Translations under genes and position numbers: made by a program | Shown: positions 11,955 to 61,802 of the stretch, piece after piece | Numbering within the stretch: the first letter of the stretch is position 1 | How the letters are laid out: each line of letters starts with the position of its first letter | The notes under the pieces: generated by a model | The model's input: only the letters and a program-made list of their open reading frames with translations | The model's database searches: none | Told to the model about the DNA's origin: nothing | From: Escherichia coli | GTDB taxonomy: Bacteria; Pseudomonadota; Gammaproteobacteria; Enterobacterales; Enterobacteriaceae | Assembly: GCF_041248615.1 (NCBI RefSeq) | Contig: NZ_CP158426.1 | DNA: 64,000 bases | Strand: one strand, 5' to 3'

Positions 11955-11958
11955 AACG

Positions 11959-12863: not shown

Positions 12864-12865
12864 CG

Positions 12866-27363: not shown

Positions 27364-27565
27364 CGAAATAATCTGGCAGTTATAAACGTTTATTTTTTTA
27401 CTGTTTGTGATCTGCTTTCCGAACTTATTAAAAAGTCTCCCGCTTCATGGAGGCTTTTGTTATTGTCCTTTGTGCTTCTCGTCAGTAAATCATCAGGGAT
27501 GATGTGAAGATTAAATGTAAAACAATTGTTTTGCTATAACAATAAATTAACTGGGAGGTTTTATC

Positions 27566-28480
27566 ATGATTTCTGCGGCGACACTTAATTCAGAACTCAT
27601 TAATAAAATCGCGCAGGATTTTGCGCAGGCGACCAGCCTTGCGGTTGTCGTGGTCAATATTCACGGCGATGAAATTTCCGAGCTGTTTAACTTCACTCCA
27701 TTTTGTCAGATGATGCGGCAACACCCTCAGCTAAGCACTCGATGTCGCATGAGCGATCGTTGTGGGGGCCTGGAAGCCTCTAAATCCGATCAGCCTTGTA
27801 TTTATCGCTGTCATGCCGGATTAACCGATTTCTCTATTCCACTGGTAATCGCCGGGCATTTAGTCGGTTTTGTATTGTGCGGGCAAGTTCGTCTGCGTAA
27901 TGATGATGTCGATTTGGTCGATATTCTGAATGTCGATGATTGCTGGCAGGCAGATCCCGAATTACTTAATGAATTCCGCAAAGTTCCTGAGATGGATTAC
28001 TCAAGAGTTATGGCCTCTGCTGATTTGTTGAAGTTGATTGTGGAAAATTGCCTCAAAAAACAACTCAATTTTGTGGTTATTAAAGAGAACAAATTTCAGT
28101 CAGATTCGGTGCGCCAGACTCGTGCGCCTAATCCCCACGACAATAAAATGAAAAAAGCTTTACGCTATATTGATGCGCATTTATCAGACGATTTGCGTCT
28201 GGAAGATGTCGCCTCGCACGTTTATCTAAGTCCTTATTATTTCAGTAAGTTATTCAAGAAATACCATGGAATCGGTTTTAATGCGTGGGTAAACCAACAA
28301 CGGATGGCCAGCGCTCGTGAGTTACTGTGCCATAGTGACTGGAGCATCGCCAGTATTGCGCGTAATTTAGGTTTTTCGCAAACCAGTTATTTTTGCAAAG
28401 TTTTCCGTCAGACTTATCAGGTTACGCCGCAGGTGTATCGACAGCAAGTGAGTGAAAATGCGGTGATGGAAACGGTATAG
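27566..28480 (+). CDS. pocR: AraC-family regulator of pdu/cob expression PocR
   Basis: 304-aa ORF, C-terminal AraC-type HTH (YLSPYYFSKLFKKYHGIGFNAWVNQQRM...), position next to pduF. Confidence 0.88.
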   Translation: MISAATLNSELINKIAQDFAQATSLAVVVVNIHGDEISELFNFTPFCQMMRQHPQLSTRCRMSDRCGGLEASKSDQPCIYRCHAGLTDFSIPLVIAGHLVGFVLCGQVRLRNDDVDLVDILNVDDCWQADPELLNEFRKVPEMDYSRVMASADLLKLIVENCLKKQLNFVVIKENKFQSDSVRQTRAPNPHDNKMKKALRYIDAHLSDDLRLEDVASHVYLSPYYFSKLFKKYHGIGFNAWVNQQRMASARELLCHSDWSIASIARNLGFSQTSYFCKVFRQTYQVTPQVYRQQVSENAVMETV

Positions 28481-28584
28481 AGTAAATGCCCCAAAAAAAG
28501 AGGACGGTTTAAATAAACTCTGCAATGAATAATTAACGTTATTTACCTGTTATGGGAAAAGTGAAATCAGCTCATAACATACGC

Positions 28585-28735
28585 TGACAGGTGTGGCACA
28601 TTTGTGCCTGGGAAGAGGGTGAAAATCCCTCGCAGCCCCCGCTGCTGTAATGCTGACAAACCCGAAAATGCCACTGATCGCGAGATTGGGAAGGTCGGGA
28701 GAGGATGACGCTAAGCCAGAAGACCAGCCAGTCAG
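28585..28735 (+). promoter_or_regulatory. cobalamin (adenosylcobalamin) riboswitch
   Basis: Conserved core gggaagagggtgaaaatccctcgcagcccccgctgctgtaa and B12-box-like gccactg...gggaaggtcgg...agccagaagaccagcc; same position as the Salmonella cob operon leader. Confidence 0.75.
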
Positions 28736-28964
28736 TCAATACCAACAACTTCGGTGGGAAGTGGGTTGCCCGGAAGCGTCCGGTAGAGTACCGGCGCGTC
28801 TTTATACCCCTACCACCCTGAAAGGATCAGGGTATGGCGGCATCATTTAGTTCTTTCATCGCAGTGCCGACAGGCACCAGGGCTGCACTTAAGGTGTGGC
28901 AATCTTGTTTCATGGCTCATCAACCAGACCGCCATTACAGGAAACTAAGTGGAGGGCGAGAGGC

Positions 28965-29402
28965 ATGAAAACGATAAAACCCGAATCGATAGCTCTTTTT
29001 TGCCTCTTATCTGGAGATGTGGATCTGGCGAAACATTTGGCTGAAATATTGCCAATAACTTGTTTTGTTGGTGAGGACTGGCAGCAAGATTTCCAGCCTC
29101 TTGACGGTGGGCCTGTGCAATCGTTATCAGATGTGTATGGCGATTATTCAGTGCTGCTATTGATAGCAGCTGAAAGCGAGATATCCGTACCAGAATGGCT
29201 CGCTCATTCTGAAGGAACGACGGTAATTGTGATTGCAGAACACAATACCCGTTTGCTGACTGGTCCGGCTGGTGGGGCTGTAGCATTGATCCATTATCTG
29301 AATGAAATCTGTCATTCCAGAGAAACCGCTGTCAATGACGCATTTTGTCGTACGTTAACACGAGGAAGTCTGGCTATTCCGCAATGCCATCTTCTTTCGT
29401 AA
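28965..29402 (+). CDS. hypothetical protein (146 aa) between B12 riboswitch and cobU
   Basis: ORF with SD-like gagagg 3 nt before ATG at 28965 (ORF track starts at 28896); no family recognised by eye. Confidence 0.45.
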   Translation: MKTIKPESIALFCLLSGDVDLAKHLAEILPITCFVGEDWQQDFQPLDGGPVQSLSDVYGDYSVLLLIAAESEISVPEWLAHSEGTTVIVIAEHNTRLLTGPAGGAVALIHYLNEICHSRETAVNDAFCRTLTRGSLAIPQCHLLS

Positions 29403-29535
29403 TGGATTGAGAATGCTGGATTTTTAATTATATTACGCGCAGTATTAATCGCGTAAATGTTTTGCGGTCAGCAACGGTGGGGGATCCATTGTTCTGTTCA
29501 ATGAATACCATCATACAATTGAATCAGGAGTCGGT

Positions 29536-30081
29536 ATGATGATTTTGGTGACAGGTGGAGCACGGAGCGGGAAGAGTCGCCACGCAGAGGCGCTTATTGG
29601 GGACTCTTCACAGGTTCTGTATATCGCCACCTCGCAAATCCTTGATGATGAGATGGCTGCACGGATAGAACATCATCGGCAAGGCCGCCCGGCGCACTGG
29701 CGCACGGTGGAGCGCTGGCAACATCTTGATGAATTAATTCATGCAGACATTAACCCGCATGAAGCTGTGTTGCTGGAATGCGTTACAACAATGGTGACTA
29801 ATCTGTTGTTTGATTATGGCGGCGATAAAGACCCTGATGAATGGGATTATCAGGCGATGGAACAGGCGATTAATGCTGAGATTCAGTCGTTGATTGCTGC
29901 CTGCCAACGTTGCCCCGCGAAGATTGTATTAGTGACTAACGAAGTGGGAATGGGGATTGTGCCGGAGAGTCGTCTGGCACGACATTTTCGTGATATTGCC
30001 GGGCGGGTAAATCAGCAGCTGGCCGCTGCGGCAAATGAAGTGTGGCTGGTGGTTTCGGGTATTGGAGTAAAAATCAAATGA
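29536..30081 (+). CDS. cobU: adenosylcobinamide kinase / adenosylcobinamide-phosphate guanylyltransferase
   Basis: 181-aa ORF with P-loop [10 protein letters not shown]. Confidence 0.92.
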
Positions 30082-30821
30082 GTAAATTATTTTGGGCGAT
30101 GCTCTCTTTTATTACGCGTCTGCCTGTGCCGCGTCGCTGGTCCCAGGGACTGGATTTCGAGCATTATTCTCGCGGTATTATTACTTTTCCTTTAATTGGT
30201 TTATTGCTTGGCGCGATTAGCGGGCTGGTCTTCATGGCGTTGCAGGCATGGTTTGGCGTACCACTGGCGGCACTGTTTAGCGTGCTGGTGCTGGCGCTGA
30301 TGACCGGGGGATTCCACCTGGACGGCCTCGCCGATACCTGTGATGGCGTATTTTCTGCACGTAGCCGCGATCGCATGTTGGAAATCATGCGTGATAGCCG
30401 TTTAGGCACCCACGGCGGTCTGGCATTGATTTTTGTTGTACTGGCAAAGATTCTGGTGTTAAGCGAGCTGGCTTTGCGTGGCGAACCGATCCTTGCATCG
30501 CTGGCGGCAGCATGCGCGGTCAGCCGCGGGACTGCCGCATTATTGATGTATCGTCATCGTTATGCCCGGGAAGAAGGACTTGGCAATGTGTTCATTGGCA
30601 AAATTGATGGGCGACAAACCTGCGTCACACTCGGCTTAGCCGCTATTTTTGCTGCCGTATTATTGCCGGGTATGCATGGTGTGGCTGCTATGGTGGTGAC
30701 GATGGTGGCGATTTTCATCCTCGGTCAGCTTCTCAAACGTACGCTGGGCGGGCAAACCGGCGATACGCTGGGAGCAGCCATAGAGCTTGGTGAACTGGTC
30801 TTCCTGCTGGCACTGCTATAA
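30078..30821 (+). CDS. cobS: adenosylcobinamide-GDP ribazoletransferase (cobalamin synthase)
   Basis: 247 codons from [18 protein letters not shown]; polytopic membrane protein; overlaps cobU stop. Confidence 0.9.
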
Positions 30822-30832
30822 AGAGACGTGAC

Positions 30833-31912
30833 ATGCAAATACTTGCCGATTTACTGAATACGATCCCAGCCATCGATCCTACCGCTATGTCGCGTGCACA
30901 ACGGCATATTGACGGGTTACTCAAACCTGTTGGTAGCCTGGGAAAGCTGGAGGCGCTTGCCATACAACTGGCGGGAATGCCGGGGTTGAATGGCATACCG
31001 CATGTGGGCAAAAAAGCGGTACTGGTTATGTGTGCCGATCACGGCGTCTGGGAGGAAGGGGTCGCTATTTCCCCAAAAGAAGTGACAGCCATTCAGGCTG
31101 AAAATATGACCCGCGGAACAACCGGCGTGTGTGTGCTGGCAGCACAAGCGGGCGCTAACGTCCACGTAATTGATGTTGGTATTGATACTGCTGAGCCTAT
31201 CCCCGGGCTTATCAACATGCGTGTCGCACGAGGTAGCGGCAATATTGCTTCAGCTCCGGCAATGAGTCGCCGTCAGGCTGAAAAGTTGCTTTTGGTCGTC
31301 ATATGTTATACGCGGGAGCTGGCAAAAAACGGTGTCACGCTGTTTGGTGTAGGTGAACTGGGGATGGCAAACACGACACCGGCAGCGGCAATAGTCAGCA
31401 CAATCACTGGCCGGGATCCTGAAGAAGTGGTTGGGATTGGCGCAAACCTGCCGACAGATAAACTGGCTAATAAAATTGATGTTGTGCGTCGGGCGATTAC
31501 GTTGAATCAACCAAATCCTCAGGATGGTGTTGATGTCCTGGCAAAAGTGGGTGGATTTGATTTGGTCGGAATAGCTGGAGTGATGTTAGGTGCTGCTTCC
31601 TGCGGTTTACCCGTGTTGCTGGATGGATTTCTTTCTTATGCTGCTGCGCTCGCAGCCTGCCAGATGTCTCCTGCAATCAAACCGTATCTCATTCCTTCTC
31701 ACTTGTCGGCAGAAAAAGGCGCGCGTATAGCGCTGTCGCATTTGGGGCTGGAGCCTTATCTCAATATGGATATGCGTTTAGGTGAGGGGAGTGGTGCAGC
31801 TCTGGCGATGCCCATCATCGAAGCTGCTTGTGCGATATACAACAACATGGGCGAACTTGCTGCCAGTAATATTGTTCTACCGGGGAATACGACTTCTGAT
31901 TTGAACAGTTAA
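30833..31912 (+). CDS. cobT: nicotinate-nucleotide:dimethylbenzimidazole phosphoribosyltransferase
   Basis: 359-aa [35 protein letters not shown]... Confidence 0.92.
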
Positions 31913-31976
31913 AAACGAAAAGTCTGATAAAAGCTATACTTAACCGATAGCTTTCGCGACTTAGGAAAGGGACATG

Positions 31977-32909
31977 ATGCGTCGTGTAAATATTTTTTGC
32001 TCATTTGCTCTACTTTTTGCCAGCCATAATAGCCTGGCGGTAACTTATCCATTACCTCCAGAGGGTAGCCGTTTAGTGGGACAGTCGCTTACTGTAACTG
32101 TTCCTGATCACAATACCCAGCCGCTGGAGACTTTTGCCGCACAATACGGGCAAGGGTTAAGTAACATGCTGGAAGCGAATCCGGGCGCTGATATTTTCTT
32201 GCCGAAGTCAGGCTCGCAACTCACCATTCCGCAGCAACTGATTTTGCCCGCCACTATTCGTAAAGGGATTGTGGTTAACGTCGCTGAGATGCGTCTTTAT
32301 TACTACCCACCAGACAGTAATTCTGTGGAAGTCTTTCCTATTGGTATCGGCCAGGCTGGGCGAGAAACCCCGCGTAACTGGGTGACTACCGTTGAACGTA
32401 AACAAGAAGCACCAACCTGGACGCCAACGCCGAACACCCGGCGCGAATATGCGAAACGAGGGGAGAGTTTGCCCGCATTTGTTCCTGCGGGGCCTGATAA
32501 TCCCATGGGGCTGTATGCGATTTATATTGGCAGGCTATATGCCATCCACGGTACCAATGCCAATTTTGGTATTGGGCTCCGGGTAAGTCAGGGCTGTATT
32601 CGTCTGCGCAATGACGATATCAAATATCTGTTTGATAATGTTCCTGTAGGTACTCGTGTACAAATTATTGATCAGCCAGTGAAATACACAACGGAACCGG
32701 ATGGATCAAAGTGGCTGGAAGTTCATGAGCCGCTGTCGCGCAATCGTGCTGAATATGAGTCTGACCGAAAAGTGCCATTGCCGGTAACCCCATCTTTGCG
32801 GGCGTTTATCAACGGGCAAGAAGTTGATGTGAATCGCGCAAATGCTGCGTTGCAACGTCGATCGGGAATGCCTGTGCAAATTAGTTCTGGTTCAAGACAG
32901 ATGTTTTAA
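31977..32909 (+). CDS. ldtA: L,D-transpeptidase (ErfK/YbiS/YcfS/YnhG family)
   Basis: Signal peptide, LysM-like region and catalytic motif [20 protein letters not shown]; start at second Met. Confidence 0.88.
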
Positions 32910-32919
32910 GAGCGTTGGT

Positions 32920-32950
32920 AATTAGAAAGCAAAAAGCCTGCTTGAAAGCA
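32920..32950. terminator. bidirectional terminator between ldtA and asnV
   Basis: aaaaagcctgcttgaaagcaggcttttttg hairpin flanked by A/T runs. Confidence 0.6.
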
Positions 32951-32964
32951 GGCTTTTTTGAATT

Positions 32965-33040
32965 TGGCTCCTCTGACTGGACTCGAACCAGTGACATACG
33001 GATTAACAGTCCGCCGTTCTACCGACTGAACTACAGAGGA
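32965..33040 (-). tRNA. asnV: tRNA-Asn (GUU)
   Basis: 76-nt sequence on minus strand tcctctgtagttcagtcggtagaacggcggactgttaatccg...gagcca with anticodon loop cuGUUaa. Confidence 0.95.
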
Positions 33041-33295
33041 ATCGTGTGAACGGGGCGCATATTAATGGCAGTACATGGTGATGTCAAAGGGTGAAATGCA
33101 TTTTTTTGTTTGTTTGCTGTCAATTTCAACAAAGTGGTGAGCTTTCAATCTTATTGGGCAATGAACCATCGTGGTGCATACCCTCCTTTTATGGGGCAGG
33201 GGAACGCGACTGCTGATAAAAAGAACCTATGACGAATCTATCATAATCTCTTATTTGACAGTTGGTTAGCTTGTACATCAACGCCAAAATAAAAC

Positions 33296-33311
33296 TGGCA
33301 AGCATCTTGCA
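33296..33311 (+). promoter_or_regulatory. sigma-54 promoter of nac
   Basis: tggcaagcatcttgca matches TGGCA-N6-TTGCA (-24 GG / -12 GC) about 55 nt upstream of nac start. Confidence 0.6.
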
Positions 33312-33366
33312 GTCTGGTTGTAAGTAATGGCGGCACTTGGGCCGATTCTTAAAAACCGGAGGCAAC

Positions 33367-34284
33367 ATGAACTTCAGACGCCTGAAATACTTCGTAAAAA
33401 TTGTAGATATTGGTAGCCTGACCCAAGCTGCTGAAGTATTGCATATCGCACAACCAGCGCTCAGTCAGCAGGTTGCCACACTGGAAGGTGAGTTAAATCA
33501 ACAACTTTTGATTCGCACAAAACGGGGCGTTACGCCAACTGACGCCGGAAAAATTCTCTATACCCATGCGCGGGCCATTTTACGTCAGTGTGAGCAGGCC
33601 CAACTGGCGGTGCATAACGTTGGTCAGGCATTATCGGGGCAAGTCTCGATTGGCTTTGCGCCAGGAACCGCTGCGTCATCCATCACCATGCCCTTATTAC
33701 AGGCGGTTCGCGCTGAATTCCCGGAGGTCGTTATCTATCTTCATGAAAATAGCGGTGCAGTGCTTAACGAAAAACTGATAAATCACCAACTCGATATGGC
33801 GGTGATTTATGAGCATTCCCCTGTGGCTGGTGTATCCAGTCAGGCTTTACTGAAAGAAGATCTTTTTCTGGTAGGAACCCAAGATTGCCCGGGGCAAAGC
33901 GTTGATGTTAATGCTATTGCGCAAATGAACCTCTTTCTCCCAAGTGATTACAGTGCTATTAGACTTCGTGTTGATGAGGCTTTTTCCCTACGGCGACTCA
34001 CGGCAAAAGTCATTGGTGAAATTGAGTCTATTGCCACGCTTACCGCAGCGATTGCCAGCGGCATGGGCGTTGCAGTATTACCCGAATCGGCCGCGCGTTC
34101 GTTATGTGGCGCAGTAAATGGTTGGATGTCACGCATTACCACTCCTTCCATGAGTCTCTCTTTGTCATTAAATTTACCCGCCAGAGCGAACTTATCGCCA
34201 CAGGCACAGGCAGTGAAAGAGTTGTTAATGTCAGTGATGAGTTCTCCAGTGATGGAAAAAAGGCAGTGGCAATTGGTGAGCTAA
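33367..34284 (+). CDS. nac: nitrogen assimilation control protein (LysR family)
   Basis: 305 codons from MNFRRLKYFVKIVDIGSLTQAAEVLHIAQPALSQQV; sigma-54 promoter upstream. Confidence 0.9.
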   Translation: MNFRRLKYFVKIVDIGSLTQAAEVLHIAQPALSQQVATLEGELNQQLLIRTKRGVTPTDAGKILYTHARAILRQCEQAQLAVHNVGQALSGQVSIGFAPGTAASSITMPLLQAVRAEFPEVVIYLHENSGAVLNEKLINHQLDMAVIYEHSPVAGVSSQALLKEDLFLVGTQDCPGQSVDVNAIAQMNLFLPSDYSAIRLRVDEAFSLRRLTAKVIGEIESIATLTAAIASGMGVAVLPESAARSLCGAVNGWMSRITTPSMSLSLSLNLPARANLSPQAQAVKELLMSVMSSPVMEKRQWQLVS

Positions 34285-34385
34285 GCGTTATATCGGGATG
34301 GAATAAGATGCGGGTTTTTATTATTTGTTATGCCGGGCATTAGACTTTAACAATAACGGGATATCTGAACTGCCCGGAGTTTACC

Positions 34386-35336
34386 GTGAATTTCCAACAA
34401 CTAAAGATAATCCGCGAGGCTGCACGTCAGGATTACAACCTGACAGAGGTTGCGAATATGCTTTTTACCTCACAGTCAGGCGTCAGCCGTCACATTCGGG
34501 AACTGGAGGATGAACTTGGCATCGAAATATTTGTTCGACGAGGTAAGCGACTGCTGGGCATGACTGAACCGGGCAAAGCATTACTGGTCATTGCAGAACG
34601 CATTCTTAATGAAGCCAGTAATGTTCGTCGGCTTGCAGACCTGTTTACCAACGATACGTCTGGCGTTCTCACTATTGCAACGACGCATACTCAGGCACGT
34701 TATAGCTTGCCTGAGGTCATTAAAGCTTTTCGCGAACTTTTCCCGGAGGTTCGGCTGGAGCTAATCCAGGGTACACCACAGGAAATTGCGACGTTGTTGC
34801 AAAATGGCGAAGCTGATATTGGTATCGCCAGCGAGCGTTTGAGTAATGACCCGCAGCTCGTCGCCTTCCCGTGGTTTCGTTGGCACCATAGTTTGCTTGT
34901 TCCACTCGATCATCCCTTGACGCAAATTACACCGTTGACGCTGGAATCAATAGCGAAGTGGCCGTTAATTACTTACCGACAGGGGATTACGGGGCGCTCA
35001 CGTATTGATGACGCATTTGTCCGCAAAGGTTTGCTGGCAGATATTGTATTAAGTGCGCAGGATTCTGATGTCATTAAAACCTATGTTGCTCTTGGGCTGG
35101 GGATCGGATTAGTTGCCGAACAATCCAGTGGTGAACAAGAGGAAAAGAATTTAATCCGTCTGGATACGAGGCATCTTTTCGATGCTAATACTGTCTGGTT
35201 GGGACTGAAGCGAGGGCAACTTCAACGTAACTATGTCTGGCGCTTTCTGGAACTTTGTAATGCAGGACTGTCAGTTGAGGATATCAAGCGCCAGGTGATG
35301 GAGAATAGTGAAGAGGAAATTGATTATCAGATATAG
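34386..35336 (+). CDS. cbl: LysR-family regulator Cbl (sulfonate/sulfur starvation, CysB-like)
   Basis: 316-aa ORF MNFQQLKIIREAARQDYNLTEVANMLFTSQSGVSRHIRELE... Confidence 0.9.
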   Translation: MNFQQLKIIREAARQDYNLTEVANMLFTSQSGVSRHIRELEDELGIEIFVRRGKRLLGMTEPGKALLVIAERILNEASNVRRLADLFTNDTSGVLTIATTHTQARYSLPEVIKAFRELFPEVRLELIQGTPQEIATLLQNGEADIGIASERLSNDPQLVAFPWFRWHHSLLVPLDHPLTQITPLTLESIAKWPLITYRQGITGRSRIDDAFVRKGLLADIVLSAQDSDVIKTYVALGLGIGLVAEQSSGEQEEKNLIRLDTRHLFDANTVWLGLKRGQLQRNYVWRFLELCNAGLSVEDIKRQVMENSEEEIDYQI

Positions 35337-35373
35337 CAAAAAGCCCGCTATAAAAGCGGGCTTTTCAGAAATT

Positions 35374-35449
35374 TGGCTCCTCTGACTGGACTCGAACCAG
35401 TGACATACGGATTAACAGTCCGCCGTTCTACCGACTGAACTACAGAGGA
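35374..35449 (-). tRNA. asnU: tRNA-Asn (GUU)
   Basis: Identical 76-nt sequence to asnV on minus strand. Confidence 0.95.
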
Positions 35450-35609
35450 ATCGCTGTTGAGGCACATCTTAACGGCGAAAAATCTTTTGTCAAACCCGAT
35501 TTTTAAATTTCCCAACTGTTTGCCGTTTCTATCAACAGTTTGTTGCATTTGCAGACAATTTGTTGGCGAAAATCTTTGCAGCTTTGCTGATTCTCCCTCA
35601 TTATTTGAA

Positions 35610-37097
35610 ATGTGGTTTCACTTTCTGCAATTAAGGTCGGCTTTGAATATCTCCTCTGCTTTACGCCAGGTTGTTCACGGCACTCGCTGGCACGCTAAAC
35701 GCAAGAGCTACAAAGTGTTGTTCTGGCGCGAGATAACCCCGCTTGCTGTTCCTATCTTCATGGAGAACGCCTGTGTCCTGTTGATGGGTGTCCTGAGCAC
35801 TTTTCTGGTCAGCTGGCTGGGAAAAGATGCGATGGCCGGCGTGGGATTGGCGGACAGCTTCAATATGGTCATTATGGCATTTTTTGCGGCTATCGATCTT
35901 GGTACCACTGTCGTTGTGGCATTTAGTCTCGGTAAGCGGGATCGACGACGAGCGAGGGTGGCGACGCGGCAGTCATTGGTGATCATGACGTTGTTTGCCG
36001 TGCTGTTGGCAACGCTTATTCATCATTTTGGCGAACAAATTATTGATTTCGTTGCGGGTGATGCCACGACAGAAGTTAAAGCACTGGCGTTGACTTATCT
36101 GGAGCTGACGGTACTTAGTTATCCAGCAGCTGCCATCACTTTGATTGGTAGCGGGGCACTTCGTGGTGCAGGGAATACGAAAATACCGCTACTGATTAAC
36201 GGTAGCCTGAATATTCTTAATATTATTATTAGCGGCATATTGATTTACGGCCTTTTCTCCTGGCCGGGACTGGGATTTGTCGGGGCTGGGTTGGGGTTAA
36301 CCATTTCTCGTTATATTGGCGCAGTGGCAATTTTGTGGGTGCTGGCGATTGGTTTTAATCCTGCGCTAAGGATTTCGTTAAAGAGCTATTTTAAACCGCT
36401 GAATTTTAGCATTATCTGGGAAGTCATGGGGATTGGTATTCCAGCAAGTGTCGAATCAGTATTATTTACCAGTGGTCGGTTATTAACCCAAATGTTCGTT
36501 GCCGGGATGGGGACCAGTGTTATTGCCGGAAATTTTATCGCGTTTTCAATTGCGGCTCTTATCAACTTACCCGGAAGTGCGCTCGGCTCTGCTTCTACGA
36601 TCATTACAGGCCGAAGGTTGGGAGTAGGGCAGATAGCGCAAGCAGAGATTCAGTTGCGGCATGTGTTCTGGCTGTCCACTCTTGGATTAACGGCCATCGC
36701 CTGGCTAACGGCTCCCTTTGCCGGGGTTATGGCATCGTTTTACACCCAGGATCCACAGGTTAAACATGTCGTTGTGATTCTGATTTGGCTAAATGCTTTA
36801 TTTATGCCTATTTGGTCTGCCTCATGGGTGCTACCCGCTGGATTTAAGGGTGCTCGCGATGCACGTTACGCCATGTGGGTTTCTATGTTGAGCATGTGGG
36901 GTTGCCGGGTTGTAGTCGGTTATGTGCTGGGAATCATGCTTGGCTGGGGTGTGGTTGGTGTCTGGATGGGAATGTTTGCCGACTGGGCTGTGCGGGCCGT
37001 GCTGTTTTACTGGCGAATGGTTACTGGACGTTGGCTGTGGAAATATCCTCGATCTGAGCCGCAAAAGTGTGAAAAAAAGCCAATTGTGTCGGAATAA
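35610..37097 (+). CDS. yeeO: MATE-family efflux transporter
   Basis: 495 codons from MWFHFLQLRSALN (ORF track start 35457 lies on top of asnU); 12-TM-like hydrophobic profile. Confidence 0.82.
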   Translation: MWFHFLQLRSALNISSALRQVVHGTRWHAKRKSYKVLFWREITPLAVPIFMENACVLLMGVLSTFLVSWLGKDAMAGVGLADSFNMVIMAFFAAIDLGTTVVVAFSLGKRDRRRARVATRQSLVIMTLFAVLLATLIHHFGEQIIDFVAGDATTEVKALALTYLELTVLSYPAAAITLIGSGALRGAGNTKIPLLINGSLNILNIIISGILIYGLFSWPGLGFVGAGLGLTISRYIGAVAILWVLAIGFNPALRISLKSYFKPLNFSIIWEVMGIGIPASVESVLFTSGRLLTQMFVAGMGTSVIAGNFIAFSIAALINLPGSALGSASTIITGRRLGVGQIAQAEIQLRHVFWLSTLGLTAIAWLTAPFAGVMASFYTQDPQVKHVVVILIWLNALFMPIWSASWVLPAGFKGARDARYAMWVSMLSMWGCRVVVGYVLGIMLGWGVVGVWMGMFADWAVRAVLFYWRMVTGRWLWKYPRSEPQKCEKKPIVSE

Positions 37098-37150
37098 ACG
37101 ACAAAGTGCAGATTATTTCAGCAAACGATTTCAAATTTAAAAAACAGGCT

Positions 37151-37179
37151 TTGACATTGTGGATGGGCATCGCTAATAT
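37151..37179 (+). promoter_or_regulatory. candidate sigma-70 promoter of asnW
   Basis: ttgaca-17 bp-taatat ending 19 nt upstream of mature tRNA 5' end. Confidence 0.5.
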
Positions 37180-37197
37180 TCGCCTCGTTCTCACGAT

Positions 37198-37273
37198 TCC
37201 TCTGTAGTTCAGTCGGTAGAACGGCGGACTGTTAATCCGTATGTCACTGGTTCGAGTCCAGTCAGAGGAGCCA
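37198..37273 (+). tRNA. asnW: tRNA-Asn (GUU); integration target of downstream island
   Basis: 76-nt sequence identical to asnU/asnV on plus strand. Confidence 0.95.
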
Positions 37274-37434
37274 AATTCAAGTTTTCATGCTTATCTGTAC
37301 GTCTCTATTTGTTTACGATTCAGTAAGTTAGCGTGAAAATCCTTCCCGGTGCGTATCTGGTTTTCTCTCTGTATCGGGATAATTTGGTGGTCAGATCTGG
37401 GGTCAGTTTGGTTCGATTCTGGAGTGACCCCCAA

Positions 37435-38696
37435 ATGTCTTTAAACGATTCTAAAATCCGCAAGTTAAAACCCTCTTCCCGTCTGGTAAAACTCTCCGAC
37501 TCTCACGGTCTGTATCTGCTCGTCAATCCGGGCGGTTCACGCATCTGGTATCTCAAATATCGTTTCAACGGAAAAGAATCCAGAGTCAGTCTTGGCGCAT
37601 ACCCGCTTGTCTCACTGGCAGAAGCCAGGCAACAGCGCGACGGTATCCGTAAGTTACTGGCGCAGAATATCAACCCGGCGCAGCAGCGCATGGCGGAGAA
37701 AGCGGCCTGCTCCCCTGAAAAGTGCTTTAAGGCAGTGGCGCTGGCCTGGCACAAAACCAACAAAAAATGGTCGGCTGATTATGCCGCCCGTATTCTCGCC
37801 AGTATGGAAAACCATATCTTCCCGGCGATTGGTCATCTGCCAGTTGCCACTCTTAAAACGCAGGATTTACTGCTTTGTTGCGGGTTATCGAGGATAAAGG
37901 CTTTCTGGAAGTCGCGTCCCGAACCCGGCAGCAACTCAGCAACATCATGTGCTATGCCGTTCAGCAGGGGCTTACCGAAAGCAATCCGGCGCAGCATCTG
38001 GATGGCGTTGTCGCCTCACCCGTAAAGAATCACTACCCCGCGTTACTGCTGGAGCGGTTGCCCGAACTGCTTGGCCGCATCGGTGACTATCAGCAGGGCC
38101 GGGAGTTAACACGGCTGGCGGTGGTGCTGACGTTGCACCTGTTTATCCGTTCCAGCGAACTGCGTTTCGCCCGCTGGAGCGAGATCGATTTCAGGCACAA
38201 AATCTGGACCATCCCCGCCACCCGCGAGGCAATCGACAAAGTACGGTTTTCGGGGCGTGGCGCAAAAATACGTACCCCGCATATCGTGCCGCTCTCCCGC
38301 CAGGCGATTGCCATTCTGAAACAGATACAGGAGCTTTCCGGCCATCTGGATCTGGTGTTTCCCGGTGATCATAACCCGTACAAGCCAATGAGTGAAAACA
38401 CCACCAACCGGGCGCTACGCCTGATGGGGTATGATACGAAAACTGAAATCTGCGGGCATGGACTCAGGGCGATGGCCTGTAGCGCCCTGGTGGAGTCGGA
38501 GCTGTGGTCACGCGATACGGTGGAGCGGCAAATGAGCCACCAGGAGCGTAACAGCGTGCGGGCAGCCTATGTGCATAAAGCGGAGCATCTGGAGGCCAGA
38601 AAGGCCATGATGCAGTGGTGGTCGGATTATCTGGATGTGTGCCGCGAGGGGTATGTTGCGCCGTACATTTATGCCCGGCAGCATAAGGCAGCCTGA
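37435..38696 (+). pseudogene. P4-type tyrosine integrase, interrupted by a frameshift near 37870
   Basis: N-terminus MSLNDSKIRKLKPSSRLVKLSDSHGLYLLVNPGGSRIWYLKYRFNGKESRVSLGAYP typical of P4-family integrases; reading frame changes between ORF 37333-38025 and ORF 37875-38696. Confidence 0.8.
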
Positions 38697-38849
38697 ATCA
38701 GAAATAACGGAAATCATTAAAAATGTAAAAGCAGATCCTGATTGACCGGGATCTGCTTATTGTATTGAGAAGTATTACCATTTTTCTGTTATTATCAATC
38801 GGAAAGTATCTAAAAATATTTGGCCCCAAATAATTTTGGTGAAAACCAA

Positions 38850-39270
38850 TCAATAAACCATTTATCAATAGGTAAGTACCGGAAATTATTCCAGTAGAAT
38901 ATTTTCAGGCGATTGCCTATTAATAAATACATTATTGATAGATAAGTGCCTTCTGTGATTTGTCCGCAAATCACAGAAGATGAAAACCTATCAATACGGG
39001 ATATTTTCACGGAAATACCAATTAATACTCCAGAATATCTCCTGACCATATACTCTGAAACCTGTAAGAACTGCATCAGATATTGAGAGACCATATAGAT
39101 ATAAGTCTGAAATTATTTTGTTTCCAATGATTTCAGGCGAAAACCTATCAATGCATCTGTTTTCAATAGGCAGCCACCTTCCGTGATTAACATGTTAATC
39201 ACGGAAGGTGAAAAGCTATCAATAATCGATATTTTCACGGAATTACCACTTAATACATCCCAAAAAATGC
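38850..39270. repeat. AT-rich array of ~110-bp imperfect direct repeat units, each containing a GTGATT-type palindrome
   Basis: Palindromes cttctgtgattt-gtccgc-aaatcacagaag (38950-38979) and ccttccgtgattaac-at-gttaatcacggaagg (39177-39208) with compensatory arm changes; flanking tatcaata and gatattttcacgg motifs repeated. Confidence 0.65.
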
Positions 39271-39852
39271 GCCATAAAATACCGGGCAATCTTTCCTGAT
39301 ACACATTATCACTGCACCAGCTATACAGAGACAAAATAATCTGCACCAGCCCCTGTAAATCGGTTATTTGTGCCAGTGTCCCGCCGCTCTACCTGTTCAG
39401 GGTTGTGCCAGTTTCTGGCCCTTTGGTTTTCGGCCCTTTCCGGTCAGGCGCTGTTACCCTTATTGCCCCTTAACCTTTATGACCCTTTCCCTTTCTGACG
39501 CAACCAGTTTATTTTGAAATGCTCCATGACAGTCTGCACCAGACTGTATTTTCACCACAGGATAACGATCACAAAGTGCAAAAAAATAACATGAAGCACC
39601 GAAGATTGTTAATCTATATGTAGCAGGTAATGATGTCAAAAACTGTCGCAGCATTTTTTATAAAATTATGAGACATTCTGTGGGCATATAATATATGTCA
39701 CAAGATGCAGGAAAACAAAGAGAGAGTTTTCAGATATAATCCCGCGTTAGAATTAATGTGATGCCCCGGTGAATTTACATTTTAAAATTTCCCTGTCCCG
39801 TAATATCGGTAAAAACGATTGAAACACCAACTATTAATCGGGAACGTCTCGA

Positions 39853-39871
39853 GTGATTACAGGGTAATCAC
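39853..39871. repeat. third GTGATTA palindrome
   Basis: gtgattac-agg-gtaatcac; same half-site as the two palindromes at 38950 and 39177. Confidence 0.55.
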
Positions 39872-40033
39872 TATAATATCCCGGCAAACTATATTGGTTA
39901 AGCAGGAGAATCTGATCAGTTGATATTTATTCGTCATGCTGTAACGATATTTTCACAATATAAACCCGTTCGCCCCCTGCGCCAGATCCGGTACAGAGGG
40001 TACGATAAATCGCTGTCGTTACGCAGTAACGTA

Positions 40034-40650
40034 CTATTTTGCGACATTCATGAATTCAGTCATTCCTCCCTCCAGCGGTAGCCGTACACCTGTTTCACCC
40101 AGCGACCGCGACCGTCGCCATGACCCAGATCCGTCGCCGTCAGCGCCAGTGACTCCTTTTCGCTGAATCCCTGCGCCAGTATCCAGGACTGTCGTATAAC
40201 GGGGACGCCCGCCTTTGGTGCCAAATACCACTTTTAGCCGGGTTTCACCGCGGGAAATGGCTTTCAGCCACGTTTTCAGCGACTGTGAACTCTGTACCGC
40301 CTCCTGCGAACGCAGCCCCATCAGCCGCGCAATCTCCAGGCTGCTGCCAGCCCTGCGTCCTGAGTACGGGCTTTCTCCATCACCTGCCTGCGTCCAGCCT
40401 GTCTCAGCACGGCCCGCAACGCTGCCATTTCGTTTTGCAACGTTCGTAAACCAATATCCAGCTCCAGCCGTTCCTCAATGTAGCATTCGATATGGCGAAC
40501 CTTGATCTGCTCCACCCGCTGGATCTGGATATTCAGCGCCCGTAAATGTTCACTGAACCGTTTTGTAATATGGATACGGTCATTCACCGTTTTGAAGCTG
40601 CCGCCCGCTTTCTTCGCCAGCGCCTTCATTTCACTGCTTAATTTACTCAT
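40034..40650 (-). pseudogene. tyrosine recombinase-like remnant (frameshifted, truncated)
   Basis: ORF 40321-40650 resembles integrase N-terminal SAM-like core-binding domain; adjacent ORF 40034-40321 in another frame carries a GTKGGRPR segment; total too short for an intact recombinase. Confidence 0.4.
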
Positions 40651-41416
40651 GAATCCCTCTGCAACAAAAACAAACAGTCTCCGGCGTGTGCTTTTTGGCT
40701 GCGCCAGAACGATACCTTTACGCCGGAGTGGTAGTTTGTTGAGGTTTAGGGAGTTTCAGGCTGTACGCAGTACAGACTGCCTGCGAAGCAGGAGTGTCTC
40801 CGGGGCTTCTTGCCCCCCTCGGTATCGATCTTTTTCTCCTTTACTCTTAGCTGACAGCGGCCCCAAAGGGCATGTCAGACGGCGGAAATATGGCGCAGGC
40901 CAGAACTGGCGCGGCTTGTGGCGGTGAGTTGTGCGGCGTCACTTTGCTTTTTCGCTGGCGCGACCAAAGTGACGCCTCGTCTGGTGCAGGGGGTAAACGT
41001 TACGTTTCTGGTGCAGGGTGACGGTCACGCGGCAGCAAAGCCTGACGGCAATGCAGGCCGCAGCCCGTCAATGTAAGGCGCTGGTTGTCAGCAGAAGATA
41101 AAACCCGGCAAAGCCAGAGTGTCAGCCCGTAAAGCCGGGTATCTGGTGCAGTGATGGTGTATATGTACGTCAGTCTCAGATGCAGGTATTTTTGCATCCC
41201 CGGCGTTTTCAGAGATCAACGCCGGTAAAGGATGCCATGCTGGCGAAGCCAGGCGCTTCTTTCAGACGTGAAGCGACAAAGGGACTGCCCGGAGGCAGTT
41301 TGTTGCAGGCGGGAGACTGCGCCATTATTTCTGGTGCAGGAAGGAAAAACTGTTTCCGGGTTTAAAAGATTGTTTGCTTACCTGGTGACGGAAAAACTGC
41401 CGCGCTTCGCTTGTCT

Positions 41417-41460
41417 TCTCCCGGCGCGCTGCCAGCAAAAGCAGGCAGCGCGCCGGGAGA
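41417..41460. repeat. perfect 17-bp inverted repeat with 10-nt spacer
   Basis: tctcccggcgcgctgcc-agcaaaagca-ggcagcgcgccgggaga. Confidence 0.7.
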
Positions 41461-41566
41461 GTCTGGTTTTACTGTAACAATGCGCCTGACGGTTCAGCCA
41501 TCAGGATCGGCGTTTATGCATGAGTCTTCCGGTACGGTTGCCCCGATCATCGATGTATCTGGACGG

Positions 41567-41755
41567 TCAGATAATTTCCGGTGATGTTTCCAGCGCATCC
41601 GCAATCAGTTTTTCGCCGCGCGGCCTGGAGCGGGTCAGCGCATTTGCCAGCGTGGAAGACGCCAGCCCGGCCCTGCGGGAAACCTCAGCCAGCGATGTTC
41701 CCTTTTTTCTCAGGCCCGCGATAATATCGGCGGGGTGCCAGTCGGGTTGCATCAT
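41567..41755 (-). CDS. Ner/Nlp-like HTH DNA-binding protein (short form)
   Basis: 62-aa ORF with DWHPADIIAGLRKKGTSLAEVSRRAGLASSTLANAL, close to the Ner/Nlp (SfsB) signature. Confidence 0.7.
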   Translation of the reverse strand: MMQPDWHPADIIAGLRKKGTSLAEVSRRAGLASSTLANALTRSRPRGEKLIADALETSPEII

Positions 41756-42213
41756 GCTGGCCTCCCGTCGATAACCTGTATGCCGTCAGCAGTACATATC
41801 CAGCGTGGGGCGTTCAGATTGGCGGCAAAATACCAGACCAGTTCGCACAGCAGCCCGGTCAGCGTGGTTTCGGTTTCCGGCAGCAGCACGTGGCCGTTCA
41901 GTATCTGCGTCAGCGCCAGGCAGTAATCGCAGAGTGATCCTGCATCAGGCTCAAAACCGGGTGAAACATCGGGAAGATCATTCGTAATAAACCCGTCAAT
42001 CAGATGTGGTGGGATCGGCTCGTTCAGCGTGGGCCGCAACAGTGCAAGACAGGTATTAAGCCTGCCACAGAGCGCCGTTTTCAGCGCCGGATCGCAGCAC
42101 TCGATGAGCGTTGTGGCAACGCGATCGCAGTACTCCGCCAGATCGGTGAAATCGGTAGCGGCACTAAAGGGAACAGCAAGTAAATTGCATTCAGAGGTGA
42201 GAGTAGTCGCCAT
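41752..42213 (-). CDS. hypothetical Cys-rich protein (153 aa), translationally coupled to Ner-like gene
   Basis: ORF overlaps downstream Ner-like start by 4 nt (ATGA); 9 Cys; no recognisable family. Confidence 0.45.
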   Translation of the reverse strand: MATTLTSECNLLAVPFSAATDFTDLAEYCDRVATTLIECCDPALKTALCGRLNTCLALLRPTLNEPIPPHLIDGFITNDLPDVSPGFEPDAGSLCDYCLALTQILNGHVLLPETETTLTGLLCELVWYFAANLNAPRWICTADGIQVIDGRPA

Positions 42214-42734
42214 AAGGCCGTCTACAGTGAGTGATAAATATTCCAGCCACTGGAGAGGCTAATCTCACGGGTGGTGGAACCGGACGGGGTTAGCCTTACC
42301 AGCCTCACTGACACTGGCGCGTCTTTCGACGCCCCCGCCCGATCCCGCCATTGAGATGAGACCGTGCGCGACACACAAATATTGTATCGTCAGTGAGGAT
42401 CTTCAGGAGGCTAATCCCGACGCCTGATTTTGCAGGCGCGGCGCAACAATACAATGTTCGGTAATTTTCAGCAAGAGGTTTAGCGGAAGCAGACGCACAG
42501 GAAAATACAATCACGCGATAAATATTAAATACAATTATATTTATATAAAATATATATTGAGCAATATGCAGACACTTTCCAGTAAATATCCTGTCAGTTA
42601 ATTCGTCCCGTTGATATCAGTCAAAAAAATAAATGTAAAAAGAGCGTATTTCGTTTCATACAGTAACGTTATTTATCATTTTGTCCGGTGTCGCCAGCAT
42701 CAGGCCAGATGAACCATAAAAAAGGATATCAGCG

Positions 42735-45700
42735 ATGAGCGGAAAACCGGCAGCACGTCAGGGCGATGCCACAATGAAAGGTGGCCCGATAGTCCAGGGG
42801 TCGGCAGGCGTGAGGATTGGCGCGCCAACCGGCGTGGCCTGTTCAGTGTGCCCCGGCGGATTCACTTCCGGTAACCCGGTGAATCCGCTGCTCGGTGCAA
42901 AAGTACAGCCCGGCGAAACCGATTTCGCGCTGCCCGGCCCGTTACCGTTCGTGCTCTCCCGCACCTACAGCAGCTACCGGACGAAAACCCCTGCGCCCGT
43001 CGGTATCTTCGGTCCTGGCTGGAAAGCACCCTTTGATATCCGCTTACAGATACGCGATAACGAACTGATACTCAATGATAACGGTGGCAGAAGCATTCAT
43101 TTTGAGCACCTGTTTCCCGGTGAGGATGGCTTCAGCCGCAGCGAATTATTCTGGCTGGTGCGCGGCGGCGTGGCGAAACTGAATGAAAGTCACCGTCTTG
43201 CCCCACTCTGGCAGGCTCTGCCGGAAGAACTCCGCATGAGTCCGCATATTTATCTGGCGACGAACAGTCCGCAGGGGCCGTGGTGGATACTCGGCTGGAG
43301 TGAGCGGGTACCGGGTGTGGATGAGGTGCTGCCTGCGCCATTGCCGCCGTACCGGGTGCTGACCGGCCTGGTGGACCGCTTCGGGCGTACCCTGACCTTC
43401 CGGCGTGAGGCAGTTGGCGAATTTACCGGGGAAATCACCGGCGTGACCGATGGCGCAGGCCGTCAGTTCCGCCTGGTGCTGACCACGCAGGCGCAGCGGG
43501 CGGAAGAGGCCCAGCAGCAGGCGGTTGCAGCCGGAGCAAAACGACCAGATATCCCGGTTTCATTGCCGGACTATACAGAATATGGCCGGGATAACGGCAT
43601 CCGCCTGTCAGCGGTGTGGCTGACGCATGACCCGGAATACCCGGAGAATTTACCTGCCGCGCCACTGGTGCGCTACGACTGGACGCCACGCGGTGAACTG
43701 GCGGCGGTGTATGACCGCAGCGGTACGCAGATGCGCCACTTTACTTACGATGATAAATACCGGGGCCGGATGGTGGCGCACCGTTACGCAGGCAGGCCGG
43801 AGATGCGTTACCGCTACGACGACATCGGGCGCGTGACGGAACAACGTAATCCGGCGGGTTTAAGCTACACCTATCAGTATGAGAAAAACCGCATCATCAT
43901 CACCGACAGCCTGAACCGGTGCGAGGTGCTGCATACAGAAGGCGAAGCCGGGCTGAAACGGGTGGTGAAAAAAGAGCACGCTGACGACAGCGTCACACAG
44001 AGTCAGTTCGATTCCATTGGCCGCCTTCAGTCACAGACGGATGCGGCAGGCCGGACGACAGAATACAGTCCGAATGTGGTGACGGGTCTCGTCACACGCA
44101 TCACCACGCCGGACGGCAGGAAATCGGAATTTTACTATAACAACCAGAACCAGTTAACCTCAGCATCCGGGCCTGACGGACTGGAAATGCGCAGGAAATA
44201 TGATGAGTACGGGCGTCTGACGCAGGAAACCGCTCGCAACGGCGATATCACCCGCTACAGTTATGATAATCCGCACAGTGAATTACCCTCTGCAACTGAA
44301 GATGCGACGGGTAGCCGCAAGCAGATGACGTGGAGCCGTTACGGGCAGTTACTGACTTTCACCGACTGCTCAGGCTACCAGACCCGTTATGAATACGACC
44401 GCTTTGGTCAGATGACGGCGGTCCACCGTGAGGAAGGTGTCAGTCTTTACCGCAGCTATGACAGCCGTGGTCAGTTAATCTCGGTGAAAGATACGCAGGG
44501 CCGTGAAACGCAGTATGAGTACAACGGTGCAGGCGACCTGACCGCCATTATCACGCCAGACGACAACAGAAGCGAGACACAGTACGATGCGTGGGGAAAG
44601 GCCGTCAGTACCACGCAGGGCGGGCTGACGCGCAGCATGGAATACGACGTTGCCGGACGTGTCATCAGCCTGACCAACGAGAACGGCTGTCACAGCGACT
44701 TCAGTTACGATGTGCTCGACCGCCTGATACAGCAGAGCGGCTTTGACGGGCGGACGCAACGTTACCGTTACGACCTGACCGGGAAACTCACGCAGAACGA
44801 GGATGAGGGGCTTGTCACCCTCTGGCACTACGACGAATCGGACCGTATCACACACCGCACGGTGAACGGCGAACCGGCAGAGCAGTGGCGGTATAACGCC
44901 CACGGCTGGCTGAAAGAAATCAGCCACCTGAGCGAAGGTCACCGGGTGGCGGTGCATTACGGCTATAACCGTAAGGGACGTCTCACCGGCGAGCGCCAGA
45001 CGGTGCATAACCCGGAGACGGGGGAACTGCTCTGGCTGCATGAGACAAAACACGCCTACAACGAACAGGGTCTGGCAAACCGCGTCACGCCGGACTGCCT
45101 GCCTGCTGTGGAGTGGCTGACCTACGGCAGCGGTTACCTGGCGGGGATGAAGCTGGGCGACACGCCGCTGCTGGAGTACGCGCGCGACCGCCTGCACAGA
45201 GAAACGGTGCGCAGCTTTGGCAGCATGGCAGGCAGTAATGCCGCATACGAACTGACCAGCACATACACCCCCGCAGGCCAGTTACAGAGCCAGCACCTGA
45301 ACAGCCTGGTGTATGACCGTGACTATGGGTGGAATGACAACGGCGACCTGGTGCGCATCAGCGGCCCGCGACAGACGCGGGAATACGGCTACAGCGCCAC
45401 GGGCAGGCTGGCGAGTGTGCGCACCCTCGCACCGGACCTGGACATCCGCATCCCGTATGCCACGGACCCGGCGGGCAACCGGCTGCCGGACCCGGAGCTG
45501 CACCCGGACAGTACACTCACAGTGTGGCCGGATAACCGCATCGCGGAGGATGCGCACTATGTCTACCGCCACGATGAATACGGCAGGCTGACGGAGAAGA
45601 CGGACCGCATCCCGGCGGGTGTGATACGGACGGACGACGAGCGGACCCACCACTACCACTACGACAGCCAGCACCGCCTGGTGTTCTACACGCGGATACA

Positions 45701-46916
45701 GCATGGAGAGCCACTGGTCGAGAGCCGCTACCTCTACGACCCGCTGGGACGGCGAATGGCGAAAAGGGTATGGCGGCGGGAGCGTGACCTGACGGGGTGG
45801 ATGTCGCTGTCGCGTAAACCGGAGGAGACATGGTACGGGTGGGACGGCGACAGGCTGACGACGGTGCAGACTGACACCACGCGTATCCAGACGGTGTACC
45901 AGCCGGGAAGCTTCACGCCGCTCATCAGAATCGAAACAGACGTGACCGAACTGGAGAAAGCGCAGCGGCGAAGCCTGGCGGAGAAGTTACAGCAGGAAGG
46001 GAGTAAAGATGGTCACGGCGTGGTGTTCCCGCCTGAACTGGTGCGGCTGCTGGACAGGCTGGAGGGGGAAATCCGGGCAGACCGTGTGAGTGACGAAAGC
46101 CGGGCGTGGCTTGCGCAGTGCGGGCTGACGGTGGAGCGGCTGGCGGCACAGATCGAGCCAGTTTATTTGCCTGAGCGAAAAATACATCTTTATCACTGCG
46201 ACCACCGGGGACTGCCGCTGGCGCTTATCAGTACTGAAGGTGCAACGGAATGGCGTGGGGAGTATGACGAGTGGGGGAATCAGCTTAATGAGGAGAACCC
46301 GCATCATCTGTTCCAGCCATACCGCCTGCCGGGGCAGCAGTACGATGATGAATCGGGGCTGTGCTATAATCGTTATCGTTACTACGAGCCGTTACAAGGG
46401 AGGTATATTACACAGGACCCGATTGGGTTAAATGGGGGGTGGAATTTATATAAATATCCGCTGAATCCAATAAATTATGCAGATCCTCTTGGCTTAGCCG
46501 TAGATATAAACCACTTCCCAGTCAACGAAGACATACGAAATTATGCAGAGAAAGTTTGGAATAATCCTAATATCATTACAATTGGAACACATGGTGATCC
46601 TCAATCAGTATATGATGAAAATTATAATAAGATAGATGTCAAGACATTAGCTAATGAGGTTCGAAATCATCCTAAATTTAAACCTGGAATGTCAGTAAGA
46701 CTGTTATCCTGTAATACAGGAAAAGGAAATAACTCTTTTGCACAGCAATTGGCAGATGAACTAGGTGTGAGAGTCTATGCTCCTGACCAATATGACTGGT
46801 ACTATTCAAATGGTAAGGTAGAGCCTTGGGGAGGATTCTATGATGCAAACAATCAATTGCAAATGGACACGAATCAGCCTGGACATGAGTTTACATTCAA
46901 GCGAAGGAAACCATAG
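42735..46916 (+). CDS. rhs: Rhs-family polymorphic toxin (PAAR-like N-terminus, YD-repeat core, divergent C-terminal domain)
   Basis: 1393-aa ORF; N-terminus [11 protein letters not shown]...[26 protein letters not shown] like E. coli RhsA-C; many YDxxGR repeats; DPIGL...DPLGL core/toxin boundary motif. Confidence 0.9.
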
Positions 46917-46918
46917 GT

Positions 46919-53836: not shown

Positions 53837-61802
<7,966 letters not shown>

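Follow-up and report, generated by a model that had tools for sequence, protein, structure and literature searches.

Three identical tRNA-Asn genes of Escherichia coli, one of them inverted, lie where mobile genomic islands are documented to insert

This analysis concerns a 64-kb window of Escherichia coli DNA (the window being the whole stretch of 64,000 nucleotides that was analyzed) and the tRNA-Asn genes of the asn family that lie within it. Inspection of the window with ARAGORN reveals exactly three tRNA genes, all of which are tRNA-Asn genes with the anticodon GTT. Positions 28000-38000 are 100% identical to E. coli NRZ14408 (NZ_LT599825.1), and positions 1-29000 and 27001-64000 match stretches of that record base for base. 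Gene names are those of the RefSeq annotation of this 100% identical record, from which DNA beyond the window was also taken. The annotated order through the middle of the window is tRNA(-), nac, cbl, tRNA(-), yeeO, tRNA(+) and then an island, and the flanking genes ldtA, nac, cbl, yeeO and yeeN therefore define the three tRNA genes as asnV, asnU and asnW, arranged as follows.

32965-33040, minus strand: asnV, tRNA-Asn(GTT), 76 nt; unoccupied, with its own predicted terminator on the 3' side and then ldtA
33367-35336, plus strand: nac and cbl, LysR-type regulators, which make up the segment between asnV and asnU (RefSeq annotation of the identical record)
35374-35449, minus strand: asnU, tRNA-Asn(GTT), 76 nt; unoccupied
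35610-37097, plus strand: yeeO, a MATE efflux transporter between the inverted pair asnU and asnW (RefSeq annotation)
37198-37273, plus strand: asnW, tRNA-Asn(GTT), 76 nt; occupied, its 3' end at 37258-37277 being the proximal attachment core of an island

Each of the three genes scores 72.6 bits with the Rfam tRNA model RF00005, where the gathering score is 29. The three 76-nt sequences are identical to one another and to asnT, the fourth copy on the same chromosome, which lies ~50 kb past the right end of the window. All three copies in the window encode a 3' end of GCCA, i.e. the CCA is present. The span from the first base of asnV to the last base of asnW is 4,309 bp, and asnW is inverted relative to asnU and asnV among the flanking genes ldtA, nac-cbl, yeeO and yeeN. 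A first-pass annotation of this DNA, made by a model from the letters alone, had described three identical tRNA-Asn genes within 4.3 kb, one of them inverted, and had named them asnV, asnU and asnW; ARAGORN, Rfam, the sequence identity and the 4,309-bp span bear out the description, and the flanking gene content agrees with the names. To the right of the island, the annotated order continues with yeeN, amn, shiA, a family-9 glycosyltransferase gene, yeeJ, a large inserted element, tRNA-Asn(-), mtfA and serU. The observation of three tRNA genes is real but ordinary, the locus being one at which the docking of mobile genomic islands is well documented.

The 3' end of the tRNA together with four downstream bases forms the 20-mer CCAGTCAGAGGAGCCAAATT, which occurs five times in the window. 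Because the same 20-mer has 0 occurrences in each of 100 dinucleotide-preserving shuffles, the five copies are not due to chance. Three of the sites are the tRNA genes themselves, and the remaining two lie at 62111-62130 on the minus strand and at 47810-47829 on the plus strand. A search of the window for more degenerate attachment copies, with up to 3 mismatches, returned only the same five sites. The two sites outside the tRNA genes mark the ends of inserted DNA as listed below.

37278-47809, plus strand: decayed genomic island in asnW, 10,532 bp (20-bp direct repeats and comparison with the empty site)
47810-47829, plus strand: distal repeat of the asnW island, CCAGTCAGAGGAGCCAAATT, 20 bp
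62109-62130, minus strand: distal repeat of the putative conjugative element in asnT, 22 bp (empty-site comparison with isolate 362)
62131-64000, unstranded: distal 1.9 kb of the asnT-integrated element, with an IS3 transposase pseudogene at 62488-63640; the remainder of the element lies outside the window

The repeat at 62109-62130 consists of the last 16 nt of the tRNA and 6 nt of downstream flank. The first-pass annotation had reported it as a fourth partial copy at 62102; the copy exists, but the coordinate was off by 7, and the sequence is an attachment repeat, which had not been recognized as such. The further 20-bp partial copy at 47810-47829 had been overlooked, such that the earlier count of a single partial copy does not stand. 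Both repeats contain the published 17-bp attO, CCAGTCAGAGGAGCCAA (Paauw et al. 2010, PMC2801613), and the exact repeats are 20 and 22 bp long here because the flanks happen to match past the 17-bp core.

The extent of the asnW island was defined by comparison with empty sites in other strains. All population counts are out of the 5,424 complete E. coli genomes, from public assemblies, that gave a match; to be counted, a genome had to align with 80% or more of the query at a single location. The reconstructed empty site, in which yeeO-asnW is joined to the DNA after 47829, has a full-length match in 4,971 of these genomes (92%; best match 99.4%), i.e. asnW is empty there. Since yeeO-asnW-yeeN is contiguous in those genomes, the DNA at 37278-47809 was inserted there, with a 20-bp direct repeat on either side. 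In 206 genomes, 80% or more of this island is found. Its integrase gene (37333-38696) contains the Pfam domains Arm-DNA-bind_3, Phage_int_M and Phage_integrase split over two overlapping frames, and this pseudogene product shares 64-75% identity with the integrases of the high-pathogenicity island (HPI), the pks island and integrative conjugative elements (ICEs). GC content within the island swings between 35% and 64%.

The boundaries of the second insertion, in asnT, are provided by isolate 362 (NZ_OW967178.1), which is colinear with the window at 99.93% identity over positions 32000-62130, carries the same asnW island and has yeeJ, asnT and mtfA contiguous. Comparison of this empty site with the two junctions in NRZ14408 gives a base-precise result, with a duplicated 22-bp core of AGAATTTGGCTCCTCTGACTGG and 51,719 bp of inserted DNA. 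This strain gained the asnT element recently. The genes annotated in the element include an intact 423-aa integrase gene abutting asnT, a VirB-type type IV secretion system, a coupling protein, MobC and ArdC, and this annotated gene content suggests that the 51.7-kb insertion is an ICE. Further annotated cargo comprises an 'ABC-three component' defense system, UbiD/UbiX decarboxylase genes, an iron-type ABC transporter and porins. The integrase is 82% identical to that of the HPI and 77% identical to that of the pks island. Across 5,426 E. coli genomes, just 5 records cover 80% or more of the half of the element that holds the integrase and the secretion system. Non-coding DNA adjoining the tRNA is homologous among the asnW island, the asnT element, the HPI and the pks island, and the distal ends of the asnW island and the asnT element are alike, with AGCCA(A/G)TTA(A/T)TGGCTACGGCGATC beside the repeat.

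Gene order from ldtA to asnW (positions 31000-37280) is colinear in 4,495 of the 5,424 genomes (83%), and the same layout is found at 97.5-100% identity across thousands of independent complete genomes. The synteny comparison that the first-pass annotation had suggested for Enterobacteriaceae was run within E. coli, where this 83% keep the order and the sampled exceptions break at asnV or asnU. Occupancy differs strongly among the copies: asnT is empty in 2,645 genomes (49%), annotation places a sugar phosphotransferase-system island at asnV in strain EC12, and asnU is occupied by two different islands in 2014C-4587 and AR96.3A, again by annotation. All four asn copies serve as insertion sites, at very different rates. 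The proposal that the asn genes are targets of island integration is thus upheld by the asnW island and the asnT element of this strain and by the asnV and asnU islands of other E. coli.

Two further observations were made in the survey. In strain FHI_NMBU_03, there was no match to ldtA-nac-cbl-yeeO while the HPI is kept at asnT, and a large deletion may span asnV to asnW. Record NZ_CP196293.1 (GCF_051564825.1) is a linear 5,969-bp 'plasmid' that represents an unplaced chromosomal piece running from cobU through asnV-nac-cbl-asnU-yeeO; some assemblies evidently break at the asn repeats. The idea that tRNA-Asn genes travel on plasmids, raised by 13-21 plasmid BLAST matches, was dropped, as the one match examined, NZ_CP196293.1, is an assembly artefact and not a mobile tRNA.

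Exchange between the tRNA copies was examined by building the chimeric junctions predicted for exchange within the tRNA genes and searching for them as full-length single alignments across the 5,424 genomes. For the asnV x asnW inversion, in which the 4.3-kb segment is flipped, the right junction (nac-tRNA-yeeN) is present in 265 genomes. The annotation of ATCC 25922 reads pks, integrase, tRNA, yeeO(-), tRNA, cbl(-), nac(-), tRNA, yeeN, which is the order expected of this inversion. The left junction with no island present occurs in a single genome, SE15, as checked by annotation. SE15 carries, in addition to the inversion, a partial second yeeO beside the third tRNA (11856-12953 of the examined SE15 stretch), and this partial copy implies duplication as well as inversion. 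For the asnU x asnW inversion, in which yeeO is flipped, the junction is present in 32 genomes, and the best matches differ in their identity values, of which there are several. Annotation confirms it in LD27-1, where all of asnV, asnU and asnW are empty, and in KL53, the order of which appears to fit two nested inversions plus an island.

A third junction, ldtA-tRNA-yeeO (asnV/asnU), is found in 35 genomes. Simple deletion of nac-cbl through the direct repeats asnV and asnU was considered for this class and set aside: in 2016C-3878, the sole genome examined, the asn-nac-cbl block is not lost but relocated downstream of the asnW island, near another integrase, and the 35 genomes are not counted as deletions. 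In the same strain, a type VI secretion cluster with Rhs/PAAR effectors follows cbl directly, at the asnU position (13077-40001 of the examined stretch). An asnW x asnT inversion, which would flip yeeN-yeeJ, was rejected, with the predicted asnW x asnT junction in 0 of the 5,424 genomes. The window itself shows no rearrangement between tRNA copies. The suggestion that the copies are substrates for recombination therefore applies to other genomes (265, 32, 35 and 1 of 5,424) and not to this one. Nor does the mosaic content of the window derive from inter-copy exchange: since the window has the unrearranged order of the majority (83%), its own mosaic is due to site-specific integration, in the form of two insertions.

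The flanks of the tRNA genes contain matches to transcription signals, which are predicted by consensus as follows.

33059-33087, minus strand: predicted sigma-70-like promoter of asnV, TTGACA, 17 nt, TAATAT (consensus match only)
35466-35493, minus strand: predicted sigma-70-like promoter of asnU, TTGACA, 16 nt, TAAGAT (consensus match)
37151-37179, plus strand: predicted sigma-70-like promoter of asnW, TTGACA, 17 nt, TAATAT (consensus match)
32931-32958: terminator-like hairpin of asnV, followed by a T-run (consensus match)

These promoter-like matches lie ~20 nt upstream of the tRNA genes and are the three top-scoring matches of the interval. A GC-rich discriminator is discernible at the putative asnV promoter, and the asnU flank has a GC-rich hairpin and T-run comparable to those of asnV. 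From these patterns, asnV, asnU and asnW look like separate single-gene transcription units, each with its own strong sigma-70-type promoter.

Taken together, the interval is read as the standard asnV-asnU-asnW part of the four-copy tRNA-Asn(GUU) family of E. coli, into which islands are inserted by P4-type integrases and in which exchange between copies occurs in other genomes, and we place the probability of this reading at roughly 95%. The last 16 nt of each asn gene and a few downstream bases hold the attO core CCAGTCAGAGGAGCCAA, which P4-type tyrosine integrases of the HPI, pks and ICEEc1-ICEKp1 family use as their chromosomal attachment site. On integration, the tRNA is restored on one side of the island and a partial copy is left on the far side. 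This strain bears the marks of two such insertions, an old one represented by the decayed 10.5-kb asnW island and a recent one represented by the 51.7-kb putative conjugative element in asnT, with asnV and asnU left empty. Because identical copies are present in both orientations, exchange between them inverts or relocates the intervening segments, as seen in other E. coli genomes but not in the window; such exchange may be catalyzed either by RecA, through the 76 bp of identity, or by island integrases, through the attachment cores. Nothing contradicts the identification: the 76-nt sequences score as tRNA-Asn, their neighbors match the E. coli asn locus, related strains offer clean empty sites at asnT and asnW, and the partial copies at 47810 and 62109 coincide with the limits of strain-specific DNA. 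The reading does have weak points. The asnW island, with its pseudogene integrase, is probably immobile. Promoters and terminators are predicted from consensus alone. The population counts hinge on the coverage threshold, and at least one public assembly is broken at the asn region. Finally, the relocation in 2016C-3878 means that the junction classes do not correspond one-to-one with simple events.

Alternative explanations differ mainly in what they take the repeats to be and in what moves the DNA between them. Chance similarity or an assembly artefact as the source of the repeated tRNA sequences or partial copies is already refuted, and we assign it a negligible probability: one public assembly does break here and its fragment is reported as a 'plasmid', but none of the 100 shuffles holds any 20-mer match against the five observed, and thousands of independent complete genomes have the same layout at 97.5-100% identity. 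A second explanation regards the nac-cbl and yeeO segments as ancient modules acquired by serial integration at asn sites, such that the multiplicity of the tRNA is a by-product and not driven by dosage. In E. hormaechei, the LysR/nac and MATE-transporter modules are flanked by attO and have been treated as possible island remnants (PMC2801613), and the occurrence of asn-nac-cbl at a different position in 2016C-3878 resembles the behavior of a movable module. Yet integration duplicates just 17-22 bp and not a whole tRNA with its promoter, whereas the three copies in the window are full length and each has its own predicted promoter. GC content across the 33-37 kb region is 47-49%, which is unremarkable against the adjacent backbone genes, the asnV-asnU-asnW order is common to 83% of the 5,424 genomes, and the annotation holds no integrase or conjugation remnants between asnV and asnW. 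Serial integration of these segments is accordingly considered very improbable.

The agent of the inversions and relocations in other strains is a closer question, and their production by the P4-type integrases of islands on identical cores, as opposed to RecA, is conceivable although on balance we lean away from it. For the largest class, the 265 genomes of the asnV x asnW type, verification comes from a single genome, ATCC 25922, in which the inverted segment adjoins the pks island with its integrase. Auvray et al. observed the inverted orientation only in pks-positive B2 strains and suggested that the inversion accompanies pks insertion (PMC8209727). The complex rearrangements in KL53 and 2016C-3878 likewise coincide with integrase-bearing islands at these tRNA genes, the same core is present at all four asn sites, and several related integrases are in circulation. 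Against this, LD27-1 is free of islands at asnV, asnU and asnW and still has the asnU x asnW inversion, for which a past or trans-acting integrase may account. Tyrosine integrases of the P4 type normally require arm sites on one partner, and a bare tRNA site is without them. Moreover, 76 bp of perfect identity suffices for RecA-dependent exchange. As the copies are identical, crossover points leave no trace, and the RecA and integrase routes yield sequence-identical products between which nothing discriminates. A narrower version, in which the integrase of an incoming island catalyzes the 4.3-kb asnV-asnW inversion on two identical inverted cores and so locks the island in place, as Auvray et al. 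suggested for pks, appears unlikely. If it were true, the inversion would not be a random RecA event; it would part an island and the repeat that matches it, and the asn genes, by virtue of their mixed orientation, would form a built-in trap that fixes mobile islands.

Returning to the preferred reading of the locus as a standard asn docking site, the contents of the asnW island are listed below.

37333-38696, plus strand: P4-type tyrosine integrase pseudogene, frameshifted (Pfam domains and annotation)
40034-40833, minus strand: second integrase remnant with Phage_int_SAM_2 and Integrase_1 and an EFASI RNA motif upstream (Pfam, Rfam and annotation)
41567-42355, minus strand: C4 antisense RNA motif (42267-42355), 153-aa open reading frame (ORF) and small HTH_35 protein, island cargo
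42735-47521, plus strand: RHS core protein (1393 aa) and downstream TPR/Sel1 protein, island cargo

The EFASI RNA motif (40706-40833, 100.8 bits) lies directly upstream of the second decayed integrase, and the segment at 40034-40833 looks like what is left of another small mobile element that had settled inside the island. The C4 antisense RNA motif (62.2 bits) is located upstream of the 153-aa ORF, which has no Pfam match, and of the 62-aa HTH_35 protein; together, 41567-42355 resembles an immunity module of phage or satellite type. Its homologous region in 2016C-3878 adjoins an 'ash family protein'. Toward the 3' end of the RHS gene GC content drops from 64% to 35%, and the ~200 residues beyond the RHS core motif of the 1393-aa protein gave no Pfam match. 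The 182-aa TPR/Sel1-like protein is probably the immunity partner of the RHS protein, i.e. the two would form a toxin/immunity pair.

The remainder of the window is made up of neighboring genes. On the left, the annotated order is hisG-hisL ... tmaR, the pdu operon, pocR, a cobalamin riboswitch, cobUST and ldtA. Within 11511-32912, a complete pdu operon for a propanediol utilization microcompartment, with pduF and pocR, precedes the cobalamin riboswitch at 28572-28746; the cbi genes normally found behind this riboswitch are missing, and a 438-bp hypothetical ORF is followed directly by cobUST. Other E. coli have insertion sequence elements and a 'cobalamin biosynthesis protein' fragment at the same position. 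On the right, yeeJ (53837-61802, minus strand), which encodes an inverse autotransporter adhesin with Ig-like repeats, is frameshifted here and intact in the near-identical isolate 362 (annotation). The His operon leader (296-419, minus strand) and the enterobacterial small RNA families STnc240 (3158-3232, plus strand) and STnc230 (27422-27505, minus strand) score above their Rfam gathering thresholds and are ordinary backbone features.

The asn tRNA cluster is among the main points at which islands for virulence and fitness enter the genomes of E. coli and related bacteria, examples being the yersiniabactin HPI, the colibactin pks island and ICEEc1/ICEKp1, and correct reading of its attachment repeats gives the start and stop of foreign DNA in a genome. 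The practical yield here is a clean map of a decayed 10.5-kb asnW island and of the end of a rare, recent 51.7-kb asnT element. Both halves of the interpretation, integration target and recombination substrate, hold; both are already published and are textbook knowledge for this locus. Current understanding is unchanged, and the population figures quantify the published picture.

E. coli K-12 carries asnT, asnW, asnU and asnV near 44 min with the same 76-nt sequence in all copies. K-12 and the window strain share the same order and orientation, ldtA-asnV-nac-cbl-asnU-yeeO-asnW-yeeN...yeeJ-asnT-mtfA; the tRNA genes are alike, and the window strain has in addition the asnW island, the asnT conjugative element and the pdu operon upstream of cobUST. 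Auvray et al. (2021) described a 4,309-bp asnW-asnU-asnV region that exists in two orientations, with pks insertion at asnW, asnU or asnV, and proposed that the inversion accompanied and stabilized pks (PMC8209727). Their invertible region is the same segment, of the same length, as 32965-37273 here, and holds yeeO, cbl and nac (gltC in that paper); its inverted form has pks at the tRNA beside ldtA, whereas the order in the window is non-inverted. Schubert et al. (2009) likewise reported four asn copies, of which asnT takes the HPI and asnV the conjugative element of ECOR31 (PMC2606025). A comparable multi-island hotspot is known from Enterobacter (Paauw et al. 2010), where the LysR/nac and MATE modules of Enterobacter hormaechei lie between asn tRNA genes, one of which is reversed (PMC2801613).

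Comparison with the HPI and pks islands themselves reveals differences in content and a shared insertion module. Unlike those islands, both elements of this strain lack genes for yersiniabactin and colibactin. The asnW island has decayed, with a frameshifted integrase, and carries an RHS toxin locus, and the asnT element is rare and carries defense and metabolic genes. As in the HPI, pks and ICEEc1-ICEKp1 module, both elements are inserted at the 3' end of an asn tRNA gene with repeats that contain CCAGTCAGAGGAGCCAA, both encode integrases 64-82% identical to those of the HPI and pks islands, and both share homologous DNA adjoining the tRNA with them. The asnT element further resembles ICEEc1 in its annotated VirB-type mating apparatus, coupling protein and MobC.

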